38,542 bases of DNA from a virus (lineage: Duplodnaviria; Heunggongvirae; Uroviricota; Caudoviricetes): the IMG/VR virus record IMGVR_UViG_2531839531_000011; one strand, written 5' to 3'. Positions within the stretch are counted from its first letter, which is position 1. Every line of letters starts with the position of its first letter. The translations under genes were made by a program, and so were the position numbers. Positions 1,102-10,299 of this stretch are shown one piece after another. The notes under the pieces are model-generated. The model did not search any database. It was not told where the DNA came from and was given only the letters and a program-made list of their open reading frames with translations.

Positions 1102-1689
1102 TCAGCGGGGTAATTTTTGTTTTGTTTCGGTTGAACTCTGATCGCCCTCCAAACTGGAGAAGCCATCAAGAGAGAGAGGCGGAGCAATCTGCCCCGTCGC
1201 AGCATTAGTTTGATTAAACATTACCCAATCCGAATACTTCCGAAAACGGGGATGATTCAAAATCAGGAGTAGCGTTTCTCCAGGCATCATTCTTCCCAAT
1301 ATTTCATAATTTTTGAGATTGTTTTGAGATACCCCTGTCATCTCTTCCATCGCTCTACGCGACAATCCCTCTGCCTCTCGAATCAGGCGGAGTTTTTCTC
1401 CAAGCTCAGATACCACTTCAGATCCATTACCAGCCAATGGCGTGGGTTCAATTTGCCCATTATCTGGAGACACTTGCCCAGTCATAAGCCAAAGCGCGTA
1501 TTTTTTGAACCTATCAACCTGTAAAACTCGCTCAACCAACTCTGCTCTAGCAGGCTGATGACCTGTTTCATATTTCTGAATAGTATTAAGTGGAATCCCT
1601 GTAATATCAGAGAATTGACGTCTGCTTAACTCTTCCGCCTCCCTCATTCTCATGAGTCTTTGCGAATAGTCTATTGACACGTTTCTCAT
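1102..1689 (-). CDS. Immunity repressor candidate with two tandem XRE-type helix-turn-helix domains (ORF extends to 1737; start at MRNVSIDY preferred)
   Basis: Duplicated motif (LSRRQFSDITGIPLNTIQKYETG and LSRRAMEEMTGVSQNNLKNYEILG); aaggag RBS before second ATG; divergent from cox-like gene. Confidence 0.7.
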   Translation of the reverse strand: MRNVSIDYSQRLMRMREAEELSRRQFSDITGIPLNTIQKYETGHQPARAELVERVLQVDRFKKYALWLMTGQVSPDNGQIEPTPLAGNGSEVVSELGEKLRLIREAEGLSRRAMEEMTGVSQNNLKNYEILGRMMPGETLLLILNHPRFRKYSDWVMFNQTNAATGQIAPPLSLDGFSSLEGDQSSTETKQKLPR

Positions 1690-1739
1690 GCGAGAAATAT
1701 ACTCCTTTCTAAATTGAGAAATGCAAGAACAACTCAAAT

Positions 1740-2751: not shown

Positions 2752-2994
2752 ATGGGCAAAGAATATAAAACTCTCATTAACAAAGCACTTGAGCGTTTTT
2801 ATTTTCGCTTAAGCGCATCAGGCACTCATGCTGAACGTGCAGCCCGTGACTCATTGACCAGGGCAATCCGGAGTCTGTATGACGTGGCTTTTTACGCTGA
2901 TGATCTGGATGCACTTAACGAACTTTCTGAGCTTATCTGCGCCGCAGAATGCGGGGAACATATTGAACCGTATAAGCTGGGGAATATCGCATGA
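2752..2994 (+). CDS. Hypothetical early protein (80 aa)
   Basis: ORF MGKEYKTLINKALERF; stop overlaps next ATG. Confidence 0.5.
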   Translation: MGKEYKTLINKALERFYFRLSASGTHAERAARDSLTRAIRSLYDVAFYADDLDALNELSELICAAECGEHIEPYKLGNIA

Positions 2995-3104
2995 GTATAT
3001 TTATCTCATGGCTTGTTATGATTATTTCGGTGGCCTGCGCCATTGGGATTATGCGAATTATTCATTCAGTAAAAAAGATCGAACGTTTTTTCACTGGTGA
3101 ATAA
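2991..3104 (+). CDS. Small hydrophobic peptide (37 aa, MSIFISWLVMIISVACAIGIMRII...), possible single-pass membrane protein
   Basis: ATGA overlap with upstream stop; hydrophobic core; too short for the ORF track. Confidence 0.3.
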   Translation: MSIFISWLVMIISVACAIGIMRIIHSVKKIERFFTGE

Positions 3105-3196
3105 CCATACAAATAAAACATCAGGTTAAATAAGAAAACGTGAAAACAATCCGCATGCGCGGAGGTATTCGCACACGTAAATAACGGAGATATAAA

Positions 3197-3607
3197 ATGA
3201 ATGCAAAAGAAGAAGGTATTATCAGAGCACTGAAAGAAATTTCAAAGATGGAAAGCGAAGTGGCGAAAAAAGCCGTAGCAAATAATCATATAGACGTCGC
3301 TACCCACACAATGATAGTTGCAAAAGTCACGGCAGAAGCCGCCAAAATCATCGAAGAACAGGGTGCGGAACTTACGCTTTTCAAAACTCAACCAGTCACC
3401 GGACTGGATTTATCTGACACCGGACGCCTTATTTACACAATTGGCTCAGAGCCACAGCGATACACCATTATCGCCGGATTACAGGACAAATACCTGATCA
3501 CTCCTTACCCCATAAGGGAATCAGCGCTTCTGACAAATCTCCACCTGATAGAGCGCTCTCAGGTCGCATTCATTGATGACGCCCAACACACCGTATTTAA
3601 CGCATAG
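3197..3607 (+). CDS. Hypothetical protein (136 aa), first gene of accessory operon
   Basis: GGAG RBS; AT-richer than flanks; no recognisable domain. Confidence 0.55.
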   Translation: MNAKEEGIIRALKEISKMESEVAKKAVANNHIDVATHTMIVAKVTAEAAKIIEEQGAELTLFKTQPVTGLDLSDTGRLIYTIGSEPQRYTIIAGLQDKYLITPYPIRESALLTNLHLIERSQVAFIDDAQHTVFNA

Positions 3608-3633
3608 GGTTACTGGACAAAAAAAGGGGGGCA

Positions 3634-3837
3634 ATGGCAATTAAGCATTTTCCCGTCGTTCGCTTTACCTCCAGAGGACGTGAATACGAAGTCGACGAAC
3701 GCCTGATTACCACTATCGACAAACATCGTTCGGAAAAGGATGCACACCACATCTACCTCACTGACGGCACTTACTTCTGCGCCACCAACGTGGCGCGAGT
3801 AAATCTTATCCGACAGGTACAGGAGCAGCGTAAATGA
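3634..3837 (+). CDS. Hypothetical protein (67 aa)
   Basis: GGGGGG RBS upstream; stop overlaps next start (ATGA). Confidence 0.5.
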   Translation: MAIKHFPVVRFTSRGREYEVDERLITTIDKHRSEKDAHHIYLTDGTYFCATNVARVNLIRQVQEQRK

Positions 3838-4052
3838 GCAGAAGGCGAATCACACGCAGGCATCGCCGCACACACATGAATTCCTTACCGACGCTGAAAG
3901 AACTCATTCAACACGAGATCGCTGATTTCTGCGCAACGCTGGGGTCGCCTGGCGAACCGGAAACACCAGAAGCGATGCAGCGCGAACTCATGATGCGCAT
4001 CGATAACGTTTTTGACTTTTTCCTGAATAACAAAAGAGAGCAATCAACATGA
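3834..4052 (+). CDS. Hypothetical protein (72 aa; alternative start at MNSLPTLKEL)
   Basis: Translationally coupled on both sides (ATGA overlaps). Confidence 0.45.
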   Translation: MSRRRITRRHRRTHMNSLPTLKELIQHEIADFCATLGSPGEPETPEAMQRELMMRIDNVFDFFLNNKREQST

Positions 4053-4252
4053 ACAAAAAGACTTGGTTTCGCGCATACATGTGGGCGCTGGTATGCGTCC
4101 TCATTTCTATCATTCTGTATGCAGGACTACTCCCCCGAATGATTTCATCAGACAGCTCCTTCCTGGTATTGCTGGGCATTTTCATTGCCATGCTGTACCC
4201 GGCAGGCGTTGTTCGCCTTTTCAGTAAGTACATCAAGGAAATCAAACAATGA
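4049..4252 (+). CDS. Small two-helix membrane protein (67 aa)
   Basis: Two hydrophobic segments (WALVCVLISIILYAGLL and FLVLLGIFIAMLYPAGVV); ATGA overlap with SPFH gene. Confidence 0.55.
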   Translation: MNKKTWFRAYMWALVCVLISIILYAGLLPRMISSDSSFLVLLGIFIAMLYPAGVVRLFSKYIKEIKQ

Positions 4253-5079
4253 AGAAATTCAGACTCTTTCAGATTATCCCGCTTTTTGCCGCCATCCTGC
4301 TGGTTGGTTGCGATCGCGTTGAGCCAGGTAATGTGGGCATCAAAGTCAACAAACTGGGCGACGACAAAGGCGTCGGTGAAGTGGTTGGCGTTGGCCGCTA
4401 CTGGACAGGCTGGAATACAGAGGTTTACATCTTCCCGACCTTCAAACAAATGAAGACCTACGATGAGCCGTTCAGCTTCCAGATGAGTGACGGCACAACC
4501 ATCGGCTATCACATCGGTGTGGCCTACAAGGTTGATCCATCCAAAGTTACCACAGTGTTTCAGACCTACCGCAAAGGCGTGGATGACATTACCGACACCG
4601 ACCTGCGCCAGAAGATCGCCGATGCACTCAACCGGCTGGCCAGCAAAATGACCACCGATAAGTTTATCGACGGTGGTAAGTCTGAACTGCTGGATTCAGC
4701 ACTTAAAGATATTCAGGAAGAGATGACCCCCATCGGCATTCAGGTCATGAGCCTCTCTTATGTCGGTAAACCGGAATATCCGCCAACCGTTATCGACAGC
4801 ATTAACGCCAAAGTCACGGCAAACCAGAAAACCCTGCAACGTGAACAGGAAGTCAAGCAACGCGAAGCTGAAGCCAACATGCTGCGCGCAGAAGCTGCCG
4901 GACAGGCCGATGCCATTCGCACAAAAGCCCAGGCTGAAGCCGACGCCATTCGTTTACGCGGCGAAGCTCTGCGCCAGAATCCCGGCGTTATGGAGCTGGA
5001 AGCGATCAACAAATGGAACGGCACGCTGCCGCAATACATGACCAGTAACACCGCTGTTCCGTTCGTTCCCGTGAAGTAA
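4249..5079 (+). CDS. SPFH/Band-7 (stomatin-prohibitin-flotillin-HflK/C-like) lipoprotein
   Basis: 276 aa; signal peptide with lipobox LLVGC; central SPFH-like region; C-terminal Ala/Glu/Gln-rich coiled-coil (EAEANMLRAEAAGQADAIRTKAQAEADAIRLRGEA). Confidence 0.7.
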   Translation: MKKFRLFQIIPLFAAILLVGCDRVEPGNVGIKVNKLGDDKGVGEVVGVGRYWTGWNTEVYIFPTFKQMKTYDEPFSFQMSDGTTIGYHIGVAYKVDPSKVTTVFQTYRKGVDDITDTDLRQKIADALNRLASKMTTDKFIDGGKSELLDSALKDIQEEMTPIGIQVMSLSYVGKPEYPPTVIDSINAKVTANQKTLQREQEVKQREAEANMLRAEAAGQADAIRTKAQAEADAIRLRGEALRQNPGVMELEAINKWNGTLPQYMTSNTAVPFVPVK

Positions 5080-5084
5080 TTAAA

Positions 5085-5130
5085 TCCGGCCAGTGAAAAC
5101 CGCTGGCCGGAGCAGTATCAGGATTTTTTA
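5085..5130 (+). terminator. Hairpin (TCCGGCCAG...CTGGCCGGA, 9-bp stem) followed 13 nt later by TTTTTT; candidate terminator of accessory operon
   Basis: Inverted repeat and T-run read directly. Confidence 0.45.
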
Positions 5131-5307
5131 GTATGCCGTTCTCACAAAAAAACCGCTTGCCATGCCGCAATCAGCCAGGTTACATTTCCGCTGCACCTCA
5201 TAAAACGGGTGCCGGGATTCTCAACCTGCTGACAAACGAAGCGCACAACCGCGCCAGCGGTTTTTTTGTGCGTACTGTATTGCCACGTCTTTTTCGCATC
5301 AGAATTA

Positions 5308-5386
5308 TGGTGGGGCGTACGGGGCCGACTTCGGTCGGGCCGGTTTCTTCGTTTGCCGGTGTTGAGAACCCCGTACGTCTCGCCAC
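5308..5386 (+). ncRNA. Candidate structured RNA element: long-range stem (GGTGGGGCGTACGGGG pairing with CCCCGTACGTCTCGCCACC) enclosing a UUCG-tetraloop hairpin
   Basis: Complementarity seen by eye in a ~320-bp region with no credible ORF; strand and function unknown. Confidence 0.25.
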
Positions 5387-5449
5387 CCCGAGATTCTCAA
5401 CTCTGGTTGGTGAGTATCCAAAAACTCACAAACGAAGAGGCCAAACACC

Positions 5450-5680
5450 ATGGCAAACCGCAAACAGCACCGCACTATCGCGGAGCGTCGTCACATCCAG
5501 ACTGAAATCGATCGCAGACTCACCCGCGCTGCACACATCGCCTTTATCATGCAATCCAACACATTGCACAGACTCAACAGCACTATTTCAGCCGACTACT
5601 GCGCCGCTGTATTCAGCTATCTGGCGGAAGACCTCCTGTCTCTTCAGGATCTCATCCAGCAGCAAAACAAACTCCATTAA
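5450..5680 (+). CDS. Hypothetical protein (76 aa) upstream of replication genes
   Basis: GAAGAGG RBS before ATG; MANRKQHRTIAERRH basic N-terminus. Confidence 0.5.
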   Translation: MANRKQHRTIAERRHIQTEIDRRLTRAAHIAFIMQSNTLHRLNSTISADYCAAVFSYLAEDLLSLQDLIQQQNKLH

Positions 5681-5752
5681 TTCCTGTTCCGGGCCTTTCC
5701 TGCACCTTGCGGCGGGAGGCCTTCGCACATCTGTAACAAGAGGATTGCCGCA

Positions 5753-6118
5753 ATGATTCTCGCCAACGACTTTCTTGAATACCTGCTCAACACAGAGCGT
5801 GATCTTGCCGCTCGCGTGCGTGATCGTTATGACATGTACCTGAAATCCCTGCCTGTACCGCAGCTCGCTGACGGAAAGATTGTTATTGATGGTCGTTACA
5901 TGATTGACAGCCACGAGGGAAATTACAGGCTTTACCGCATTGAAGGTGGCACCCCGTCCGTTATTGGCATTTACCAGCGCCCATCCTCTGCAATCGTCGA
6001 TGTGATTGCCGACAGCATCCGCATCACACATCGCCATGCCGACACAGAAGACACCGTGCTGGAAATTCAGCGGCTGGCTACAGTCTGCCGCGACACCCTG
6101 AATGGCATGACGAAGTAA
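5753..6118 (+). CDS. Hypothetical protein (121 aa) immediately upstream of gene A
   Basis: ORF with start overlapping previous stop region; no domain recognised. Confidence 0.5.
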   Translation: MILANDFLEYLLNTERDLAARVRDRYDMYLKSLPVPQLADGKIVIDGRYMIDSHEGNYRLYRIEGGTPSVIGIYQRPSSAIVDVIADSIRITHRHADTEDTVLEIQRLATVCRDTLNGMTK

Positions 6119-9023: not shown

Positions 9024-9983
9024 ATGAAAATTTGTATCGACGACGGCTCCACCAACATCAAGCTGGCATGGACTGAGAACGGCGAACGCCGCAACGCCAT
9101 CAGCCCGAACAGCTTCAAGTCGGAATGGTCTGCGCCGTTCGGTGGCACGCAGCCCGCAAACTACATGCTTGATGGCGTGCGCTATGGTTTTGATCCGGTC
9201 AGCGATCGCTTTGTCCAGACGACCGACACGCAATACCAGTACAGCGATGTGAATGTCATTGCCATTCATCACGCGCTGGTCAAATCAGGTATCACACCAC
9301 AGGAAGTGGATGTGGTTGTCACCCTGCCACTGAGCGAGTATTTCGACACAAACGCCCAGCCGGATATGACCAACATCAACCGCAAAAAAGCGAATGTTAT
9401 GCGCCCGGTGGAGTACCAGAACGGTGAGGCATTCACTATCCGTAACGTGCGGGTTATGCCTGAATCCATTCCGGCTGGCTTTAAAGCACTGGCTGACATG
9501 AGTCCGTTTGAATCCCTGCTGATTGTGGATTTAGGCGGAACCACGCTGGATGTGGCAAAGGTTCAGGGACAACTGGCAGGTATCAGCCAGGTGTTTTGCG
9601 ATCCACACGTAGGCGTTTCCCTGATGGCCGATGCAGTACTCTCGGTGATGGCCGCTAACGGTATGCGTACCAGTCACCACATCGCCAATACCATTATCGA
9701 ACATCGCCATGATGAAGCCTGGCTGCGCCAGCACATCCACAATGACGCGCATTACGCCAGCCTGATGGCGGTTATTCGTGAAAAGGAAGAAACACTGAAA
9801 CAACGCGTGATCCGCGCGCTGGCGGGTTTTTCGGGTTACGGGCGGGTGATGGTTGTCGGTGGCGGGGCGGAGATTGTGGCACCCGCTATCCGCGAAGCCT
9901 GCGGAGTTAATGCGACTTTCATCGCGGACGGGGTGCCACAGTTTGCTCTGGTTAAGGGGCTGTACGCAATGGACAAGGAGTAA
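9024..9983 (+). CDS. parM: ParM/StbA-like actin-fold partition ATPase
   Basis: 319 aa; N-terminus MKICIDDGSTNIKLAW and downstream blocks closely resemble recalled plasmid R1 ParM; DLGGTTLD phosphate motif. Confidence 0.8.
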   Translation: MKICIDDGSTNIKLAWTENGERRNAISPNSFKSEWSAPFGGTQPANYMLDGVRYGFDPVSDRFVQTTDTQYQYSDVNVIAIHHALVKSGITPQEVDVVVTLPLSEYFDTNAQPDMTNINRKKANVMRPVEYQNGEAFTIRNVRVMPESIPAGFKALADMSPFESLLIVDLGGTTLDVAKVQGQLAGISQVFCDPHVGVSLMADAVLSVMAANGMRTSHHIANTIIEHRHDEAWLRQHIHNDAHYASLMAVIREKEETLKQRVIRALAGFSGYGRVMVVGGGAEIVAPAIREACGVNATFIADGVPQFALVKGLYAMDKE

Positions 9984-9987
9984 ACCA

Positions 9988-10299
9988 ATGACGACTCCAA
10001 CCAGACGGATAAGTTTCTATCTGAAGCCCGCCGCCGTCAAGAACGAAGGTGAAGCATGCGCCTGGCTGGACAGCCTTACACCAGAAGCGCGCAAAAGCGG
10101 CCAACGCGTGGCTTTTCTGGCCGGGCTGGCACTTCTGAAAATGAATCCGGCAGAGGCTTACCGACTGGCTGCATGGGCTGATGATGAAGCGTTATCAGTG
10201 ACACAAACCAGGACAGAACGCCCCGCGTCACAGCCAGTATCAACCGCACAGATAACCAGTCAGATGGCCGGAAATATCCGGGCGTTATTTCCCGAATAA
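9988..10299 (+). CDS. parR: ParR-like DNA-binding adaptor
   Basis: 103 aa directly after parM with AAGGAG RBS; AFLAGLAL and C-terminal NIRALFPE resemble recalled R1 ParR. Confidence 0.55.
   Translation: MTTPTRRISFYLKPAAVKNEGEACAWLDSLTPEARKSGQRVAFLAGLALLKMNPAEAYRLAAWADDEALSVTQTRTERPASQPVSTAQITSQMAGNIRALFPE

Follow-up and report, generated by a model that had tools for sequence, protein, structure and literature searches.

A two-gene SPFH lipoprotein cassette in the early region of a P88-like Escherichia coli prophage

Reading frames of the locus and borders of the cassette

The window (the whole stretch of DNA analysed here, 38,542 nucleotides, IMG/VR record IMGVR_UViG_2531839531_000011) represents an entire Escherichia coli prophage of the P2 family and P88 type (Xuanwuvirus). 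Its early region contains a run of five co-oriented open reading frames (ORFs), the last two of which encode a small two-helix membrane protein and a predicted lipoprotein of the SPFH/Band 7 family. These two genes are the subject of this report. A first-pass annotation, made from the sequence alone, placed the five ORFs and sized their products correctly (136, 67, 72, 67 and 276 amino acids), and took them for a single accessory operon. Our comparisons do not bear out that grouping: ORF1 and ORF2 recur in P88-like phages without the pair, ORF3 is a remnant, and the exchangeable unit is confined to the last two genes and a hairpin.

3197..3607, + strand: ORF1, 136 amino acids, P88-like backbone gene (phrog_9338, E 7e-69)
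3634..3837, + strand: ORF2, 67 amino acids, backbone gene, homologue of P88 gp08 (phrog_3459, E 5e-45)
3834..4052, + strand: ORF3, 72 amino acids, Ead/Ea22-like deletion remnant (phrog_4144, positions 34-99 only)
4049..4252, + strand: ORF4, 67 amino acids, two-transmembrane hairpin protein (phrog_1130, E 1.8e-22)
4249..5079, + strand: ORF5, 276 amino acids, predicted SPFH/Band 7 lipoprotein (Pfam Band_7, phrog_200)
5085..5111, + strand: 11-bp hairpin 3' of the ORF5 stop codon (-22.3 kcal/mol, z = -4.4)
~4043..5142, + strand: exchangeable cassette of ORF4, ORF5 and the 3' hairpin, from similarity breakpoints

The reading frames are tightly packed. ATGA stop/start overlaps at 3834, 4049 and 4249, reported in the first-pass annotation and read directly in the sequence by us, chain ORF2, ORF3, ORF4 and ORF5. 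ORF1 and ORF2 do not overlap and are separated by 26 nucleotides.

The borders of the cassette emerge from comparison with related phages. The 2.1-kb region spanning the five ORFs is 99.3% identical to the E. coli N50 prophage. P88 itself has only 3924-5200 in common with the window (95% identity), and the P88-like phages 569R5, 705R2 and Shae_phiSM have only 3100-3826 in common with it, which corresponds to ORF1 and ORF2. Similarity to Shae_phiSM and 569R5, neither of which carries the SPFH gene, breaks off at 4027/4042 and returns at 5143; the exchangeable unit therefore comprises ORF4, ORF5 and the hairpin. Other P88-like phages encode Ash-family or helix-turn-helix proteins at the same slot, and the usual P88-like gene order is ORF1, ORF2, a MarR-type winged-helix gene, an Ead/Ea22-like gene and then the variable slot. 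The block as a whole is thus not conserved in all P2-like phages. Synteny supports accessory cargo for ORF4 and ORF5, and assigns ORF1 and ORF2 to the backbone.

The hairpin behind ORF5, noted in the first-pass annotation as the end of the block, is stable: none of 200 shuffled sequences folds equally well. However, it is not a textbook intrinsic terminator because the nearby T-run (5124-5129) lies 12 nucleotides past the stem, and a terminator scan did not call it.

The cassette is common without being universal. Of 5,426 complete E. coli genomes, 874 have the backbone just downstream, 145 have the SPFH gene joined to the isrK side of it, and 79 have all five ORFs in this arrangement. About 17% of P88-like early regions thus bear the SPFH cassette (145 versus 874 genomes). 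DNA similar to the 2.1-kb query, mostly the SPFH gene, occurs in 1,721 of the 5,426 genomes, Stx2-converting phages included. More widely, SPFH protein homologues are found in 767 of 50,697 phage records, and the gene is carried by 365 mostly non-mobilizable plasmids of ~90 kb that are probably P1-type phage-plasmids. Temperate carriers of the pair are found among lambdoid/Stx, P1-like and Enc34-like phages, virulent ones among N4-like phages. Virulent carriers also include the Vequintavirinae, as well as Kayvirus, whose members are treated as therapy candidates in the published work on that genus. Haloarchaeal viruses encode SPFH protein homologues too. The two genes are exchanged together among temperate and virulent phages that are not related to one another.

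The SPFH lipoprotein and its two-helix partner

ORF5 has the sequence signature of an SPFH/Band 7 protein anchored through a lipobox cysteine. Residues 23-209 match Pfam Band_7 (PF01145) with an E value of 5.7e-31 and 108.4 bits, against a gathering threshold of 23.6, and the protein matches phrog_200 ('lipoprotein') at E 4e-112. Its N-terminus (MKKFRLFQIIPLFAAILLVGC, followed by DR) combines a basic n-region, a hydrophobic core and the lipobox L-V-G-C, ending at Cys21. Signal peptide and lipobox occupy nucleotides 4249-4311, and the predicted anchor is a lipid, not a transmembrane helix. Across 11 diverse homologues, which range from coliphages to Caulobacter and Staphylococcus phages, C21, K255, W256, G258 and P261 are invariant and the C-terminal motif KWNGxLP...PFVxVK is conserved. 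HflK is the top sequence match of ORF5 among solved structures.

The AlphaFold2 model (predicted local distance difference test score, pLDDT, 76.6) has three parts: strands at residues 20-95 that form the beta-rich SPFH1 subdomain, an alpha/beta SPFH2 subdomain at 97-176, and a single 65-residue helix at 179-243 that takes in the Ala/Glu-rich tail. Model confidence is low for the C-terminal 27 residues. Because the first beta strand begins at the lipid-modified cysteine, the model leaves no linker between the lipid anchor and SPFH1. Foldseek matched this model to HflC, HflK, prohibitin, erlin and stomatin at E values of 1e-13 to 1e-10, with HflC (7vhq_G, E 2.6e-13) at the top, and to QmcA of the QmcA-YbbJ complex at E 6e-8. 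The description of ORF5 as an SPFH lipoprotein with a coiled-coil tail, already proposed in the first-pass annotation, is therefore upheld by profile, lipobox and fold alike.

Aspartate at position +2 of a lipoprotein is the inner-membrane retention signal of E. coli. This residue is found at +2 in 66 of 96 distinct sequences of the SPFH family.

ORF4, likewise predicted from the outset to be a two-helix membrane protein, has hydrophobic segments at residues 12-28 and 39-55 with a predicted N-in/C-in topology. The short loop between them (P29-F38) would face the periplasm, and P29 is the sole invariant residue of the family. ORF4 is 28% identical to N4 gp19 (E 2e-8). Its family, phrog_1130, is placed by PHROGs in the category 'moron, auxiliary metabolic gene and host takeover'.

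The link between the two genes is strong. We collected IMG/VR loci with a profile built from a diverse alignment, which recovered near-identical loci only, and then with queries from N4, Vequintavirinae and Burkholderia phages; upstream partners were assigned by hidden Markov model (HMM) coordinates. A small two-helix gene lies directly 5' of the SPFH gene in 267 of 280 viral loci. Counted by distinct SPFH sequences, the upstream gene is present for 89 of 96, and in 58 of these 89 the two genes overlap by four nucleotides. One clade missed by the partner HMM has a 64-amino-acid two-helix ORF with the same four-nucleotide overlap. A two-helix ORF with a common loop motif abuts the SPFH gene on its 5' side in P88, phiP27, a Stx2a phage, RCS47 and N4, and the same upstream ORF is found in a Vequintavirinae phage, an Aeromonas phage and Burkholderia phiE125. 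Such regular placement marks the two-helix protein as a genuine conserved partner, encoded almost always directly 5' of SPFH genes of this kind.

The partner is left unannotated in the GenBank/RefSeq records of phiP27, RCS47 and a Stx2a-converting phage (L003:3262-3450, L004:3230-3466 and L013:2316-2504).

Clustering of neighbouring genes across phages revealed no third conserved gene near the pair. We considered whether ORF3, with its Ea22-like kin, might be related to the P22 gp17-like gene beside the N4 pair; there is no similarity between them, and hence no conserved three-gene module. We also considered ORF4 as an NfeD protein. For eight diverse members of the partner family there was no NfeD match at E values up to 1 and no other Pfam identity, and a profile search of the PDB was equally empty. 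Indeed, a partner of just 67 amino acids with two transmembrane helices has no space for the NfeD OB-fold domain.

The early operon and its other genes

Five further features frame the cassette.

1674..1703, + strand: Pe-like early promoter TTGACA-18-TATACT, 5' of cox (11 of 12 consensus matches)
1802-2089, + strand: cox homologue (Pfam Phage_Cox, E 3.4e-23)
5193..5267, + strand: IsrK-like small RNA (Rfam RF01394, 62 bits versus a gathering score of 50)
5303..5390, + strand: C4-type antisense RNA (Rfam RF01695, 79 bits versus a gathering score of 45)
5450-5680, + strand: 76-amino-acid 'derepression protein' ORF (Pfam Derepression, E 8e-5, below the cut-off)

The site at 1674-1703 is the top-scoring promoter in a consensus scan of the strand that reads through the block. 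Within the block, the forward strand has one weak 9/12 match, inside ORF1, and the simple scan found no sigma-70-like site in ORF2-ORF5, a weak negative. In phiP27 and the P1-like RCS47, too, consensus scans turned up no promoter ahead of the pair. The cassette belongs to the Pe early operon, where the prophage repressor should keep it silent. A search of PADLOC-DB 2.0 gave no match for ORF1, ORF2, ORF3 or ORF5, and a marginal one for ORF4 (PDC-M18B, 21 residues, E 0.0078). Repressor control of the operon, the lack of a promoter of its own and the lack of a match to known defence systems together make an early lytic role probable: the SPFH pair probably has an accessory task early in the lytic cycle, as opposed to a defence expressed by the lysogen. 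Judged as a moron, the cassette is variable in presence among syntenic phages, and no promoter of its own appeared in the consensus scan, weak as that negative is. The SPFH locus also lies outside the gpA-gpQ defence hotspot described for P2-like phages, and the published accounts of P2 defence hotspots that we consulted mention neither SPFH nor this locus.

Other phages place the pair in comparable company. In N4 the pair separates the RNAP2 genes from the replication genes and adjoins a P22 gp17-family gene. In P1-like phages it immediately precedes the gene for a DnaB-like helicase. A Salmonella prophage has it downstream of a CI-type repressor, flanked by the genes for a single-stranded DNA-binding protein and DNA polymerase A, and in phiP27 and Stx2 phages it is located between the immunity side and xis-int.

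ORF1, ORF2 and ORF3 are neighbours of the SPFH unit and not components of it. ORF1, which is found in 569R5 and Shae_phiSM without the SPFH pair, belongs to a tiny family (19 clusters among 1.8 billion representative proteins in an exhaustive search). Its AlphaFold2 model (pLDDT 84.6) shows a helical hairpin followed by a small SH3/KOW-like barrel; Foldseek against the PDB and BFVD gave no neighbour below E 1e-3, just generic SH3/KOW/chromo-like barrels. The ORF2 region (3624-3825) is an 84% match to P88, and the profile match of ORF2 is limited to a PHROG without an assigned function. Neither ORF1 nor ORF2 has a signal peptide or a transmembrane segment, or any tie to the membrane pair.

ORF3 is not the intact gene it was first taken to be. 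Its C-terminal 49 residues are 69% identical to residues 52-100, the tail, of P88 gp10, its N-terminus is an unrelated basic sequence, and its equivalent is annotated in RefSeq as a pseudogene fragment. Comparison with the prophage of E. coli C11 shows a loss of ~350 bp from the window, with copies of a 32-bp junction sequence (window 3809-3840) as the end points, and this deletion identifies ORF3 as a remnant, the tail of an Ead/Ea22-like gene. The remnant preserves the translational coupling of ORF4 to the upstream genes.

The 32-bp junction consists of the end of ORF2, a Shine-Dalgarno sequence and the ATGA overlap, and the C11 prophage has two copies of it. Duplicated junction sequences of this type may drive cassette shuffling in the early region.

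The base composition of the block had been described as partly AT-rich. This is true of 2850-3300 only, the upstream spacer and the start of ORF1 (GC content 0.37-0.40); the rest of the block has a GC content of 0.47-0.55.

Downstream of the cassette lies an RNA module. The IsrK-like small RNA is accompanied by a promoter-like site (5157-5186) and a terminator-like site (5247-5262) and opens the next, separate module; it is therefore the 3' boundary of the SPFH finding. P88 gp14, a homologue of the 76-amino-acid ORF, is annotated as a derepression protein. The stretch 5193-5680 looks like an RNA-controlled antirepressor module of the P1 immI or Gifsy-1 IsrK type, placed in a P2-family early operon upstream of replication gene A (for IsrK, see PMC4825925). 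A 207-amino-acid ORF listed at 5133-5756 (+ strand) is almost certainly spurious because it spans both Rfam-matched small RNAs and the derepression-protein ORF.

Three further observations concern the prophage at large. A 37-amino-acid ORF at 2991-3104 (+ strand) overlaps by position the stop codon of a DUF4754 gene (ATGA at 2991) and is a further coupled small early gene; the P88 counterpart is recorded as a membrane protein, that of the N50 prophage as a hypothetical protein. The immunity repressor (1102-1737, - strand) is a 211-amino-acid protein with two tandem XRE-type helix-turn-helix domains, and the repressors of the nearest relatives, P88 and the N50 prophage, have 93-97 amino acids, so the immunity region is unlike that of otherwise near-identical prophages. 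After replication gene A, at 9024-10299 (+ strand), synteny with P88 and the N50 prophage identifies a ParM-type segregation ATPase and a partition protein, an unusual cargo for an integrated P2-family prophage.

Possible functions of the pair

We tentatively favour the following explanation, which we regard as possible. The pair would be a mobile two-gene cassette in the early lytic operon of a P88-like prophage, with an SPFH ring and its partner as the products and protection of the envelope, or exclusion at the envelope, as the output. After induction or infection, ORF4 and ORF5 would be co-produced, and the four-nucleotide overlap suggests roughly fixed proportions. The lipoprotein, with aspartate at +2, would be retained in the inner membrane with SPFH1 directly on the periplasmic face, and would oligomerise through its 65-residue helix into a ring or cage like that of HflK/C. 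ORF4 may supply the transmembrane part that the lipoprotein lacks, making contact through its short periplasmic loop. The patch of inner membrane fenced in this manner would serve the infection cycle of the phage itself, in our preferred reading by blocking the DNA entry of a second phage or by countering another second insult to the membrane of the infected cell.

We favour an output in exclusion or protection because the products belong to the envelope, are probably made early, are distributed sporadically as accessory proteins are, and in places have genes of the gp17 or 'superinfection exclusion' families next to their own. Directly 5' of the N4 pair lies gp18 (L005:2413-2727), a member of the P22 gp17 'superinfection exclusion' family (PF17420, E 1.5e-56), and in a Vi01-like Salmonella phage a superinfection exclusion protein is listed beside the SPFH gene. 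There are precedents for exclusion at this site. Published accounts describe P22 SieA as an envelope exclusion protein expressed from the prophage (PMC10883804), T4 Spackle as an early periplasmic exclusion protein (PMC7677548) and a T5 exclusion system that acts at the envelope (PMC9586334). The likeness of these to the SPFH pair is in location and lifestyle only; we found no relation in sequence or fold, and the literature searched links no SPFH protein to exclusion.

Several points weigh against this explanation. The ring, the retention in the inner membrane and the contact between the two proteins are inferences. The adjacency to gp17-like genes is seen in two lineages only, and the lack of a promoter in the cassette rests on a simple consensus scan. 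The +2 residue is tyrosine in N4 and something other than aspartate in several other clades; membrane location may therefore vary among members. Literature searches found no functional study of any member of the phage SPFH lipoprotein family, and a 2026 paper calls the reason for an SPFH protein in phages unclear. A Pasteurella prophage SPFH protein, a possible homologue, is detectable in lysogen cultures and outer-membrane vesicles (PMC9872710). Finally, modules with mature SPFH domains of 90% identity or more can have partners of just 18% identity, which argues against a tightly co-evolving interface. We had considered mirror-tree co-evolution as support for such an interface and rejected it: the identity of the partners correlates more closely with that of the signal peptides (r = 0.74) than with that of the mature domains (r = 0.51). 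Megablast matches to lambdoid (Stx2/phiP27) and P1-like copies start no more than a few bases from the Cys21 codon (window 4306-4309). This boundary and the pattern of divergence indicate that the partner gene and the signal peptide are exchanged apart from the mature SPFH domain.

A more specific proposal follows the same lines, and we think it somewhat unlikely: a two-component system common to many phages and not recognised before, in which an early, periplasm-facing SPFH cage on the inner membrane excludes superinfecting phages or blunts membrane-based host defences. Specificity could reside in the small subunit, which diverges fast and is exchanged along with the signal peptide.

The pair might instead modulate a protease. 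The SPFH ring, acting like HflK/C, would enclose FtsH or another inner-membrane protease, or compete for it; this we consider unlikely, as we do the proposed consequence, an altered stability of CII-type activators, LpxC or SecY as regulators of phage or host. HflK/C SPFH domains face the periplasm on the inner membrane. HflK and HflC are among the top sequence and fold matches of ORF5 and share its predicted periplasmic orientation (7vhp, 7wi3), ORF5 has the SPFH fold and the long coiled-coil helix, and the annotator of Aeromonas phage Gekk3-15 proposed such a role. However, prohibitin, erlin and stomatin fit ORF5 about equally well, and its scores against the NCBIfam equivalogs fall far below their cut-offs (25.7 versus 134.4 bits for HflC, TIGR01932; 23.5 versus 159.4 bits for HflK, TIGR01933). 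Fold-aligned identity to HflK and HflC is ~16-20%. Whereas HflK and HflC form a pair of SPFH proteins anchored by transmembrane helices, ORF5 has no such helix, is predicted to be lipid-anchored and lacks a second SPFH paralogue, its neighbour being a 67-amino-acid non-SPFH protein. Moreover, the pair is present in virulent phages, which make no lysogeny decision, and SPFH homologues are present in haloarchaeal viruses. A modulator of lysogeny of the HflK/C type, as first suggested for the locus, cannot be the general function because the operon is under repressor control and some carriers, such as the N4-like phages, are virulent.

A role in lysis timing or membrane maintenance is quite unlikely. 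Here the scaffold would stabilise the energised inner membrane, or organise secreted lysis enzymes, holin or antiholin, so that premature lysis is averted. In its favour stands the homologous Kayvirus pair MbpV-MbpS, which lies inside the lysis cluster between the endolysin gene lysK and the transglycosylase gene tgl; MbpS is ~23-25% identical to the family, the small membrane-protein gene abuts the mbpS start, and the Kayvirus paper describes MbpV as holin-like. N4 gp19, the homologue of ORF4, has a weak holin-family match in Pfam (E 0.038), but this is far under the cut-off. The Kayvirus pair differs from ours in its Gram-positive host, the lack of a classical lipobox and its lysis-cluster site, and MbpV has a single transmembrane segment and belongs to a different PHROG. 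By contrast, all Gram-negative phages that we examined have the pair in early or replication regions, not in lysis cassettes.

We regard as very unlikely that the cassette is switched on in the lysogen, either for defence or abortive infection, as the first-pass annotation had entertained, or for lysogenic conversion that alters surface or virulence. The cassette is variable cargo at a swap-prone slot, its partner gene falls in the host-takeover category of PHROGs, and Pasteurella offers a parallel: P. multocida PM0222 (OAZ06802.1), a prophage-encoded HflK/C-like SPFH protein of 25-35 kDa, is reported to be a virulence factor that acts via TLR1/2 and to be present in outer-membrane vesicles (PMC9872710). 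PM0222 is likened to the phage SPFH lipoproteins by description. Set against this, PADLOC yielded nothing for ORF5 and nothing meaningful for ORF4, no cassette promoter was found in the window, RCS47 or phiP27, the genes are chained translationally to early genes under Pe and lie outside the gpA-gpQ hotspot, and the pair is shared with virulent N4-like phages.

That all five ORFs work as one system is highly improbable: they are co-oriented, four are joined by ATGA overlaps and 79 E. coli genomes share the whole arrangement, but the pair and the ORF1-ORF2 genes are each found in the other's absence, ORF3 is a remnant, and no third gene co-occurs with the pair across phages.

Relation to known SPFH systems

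The SPFH proteins HflK/C, prohibitin, stomatin, flotillin and erlin are now seen as membrane cages. QmcA, another SPFH protein, faces the cytoplasm. SPFH-NfeD operons such as QmcA-YbbJ (PDB 8z5g), YqiK-YqiJ and Pyrococcus PH1511-PH1510 resemble the phage pair in setting a small membrane-protein gene beside an SPFH gene within one transcription unit, and QmcA is a fold match of ORF5. They differ in that the phage partner has 67 amino acids, two helices and no NfeD OB-fold, and in that ORF5 is predicted to be exported, unlike the cytoplasm-facing QmcA.

The pair of this prophage does not differ in kind from those already on record in P88 and N4. P88 gp11-gp12 represent these two families in the same order and as overlapping genes (gp12 99.3% and gp11 95.5% identical to the window proteins), and N4 gp19-gp20 are the same pair (ORF5 ~61.5-63% identical to gp20, ORF4 28% to gp19). 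These genes are annotated just as 'lipoprotein', 'membrane protein' and, historically, 'serine protease'. The system is thus a phage variant of the SPFH-plus-partner theme, predicted to be lipid-anchored and to face the periplasm, in which the partner is minimal and not an NfeD protein. Such pairs are common and have been annotated before.

What changes is how the locus should be read. The expectation of a prophage defence island is corrected, and the observation that the SPFH gene travels with an obligatory but often unannotated two-helix partner in early lytic operons turns a vague annotation into a two-gene unit. This unit is open to cloning and deletion, with N4 and P88 as tractable models. 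If the pair does prove to be a two-component exclusion or anti-defence cage, this would be the first function for viral SPFH proteins.

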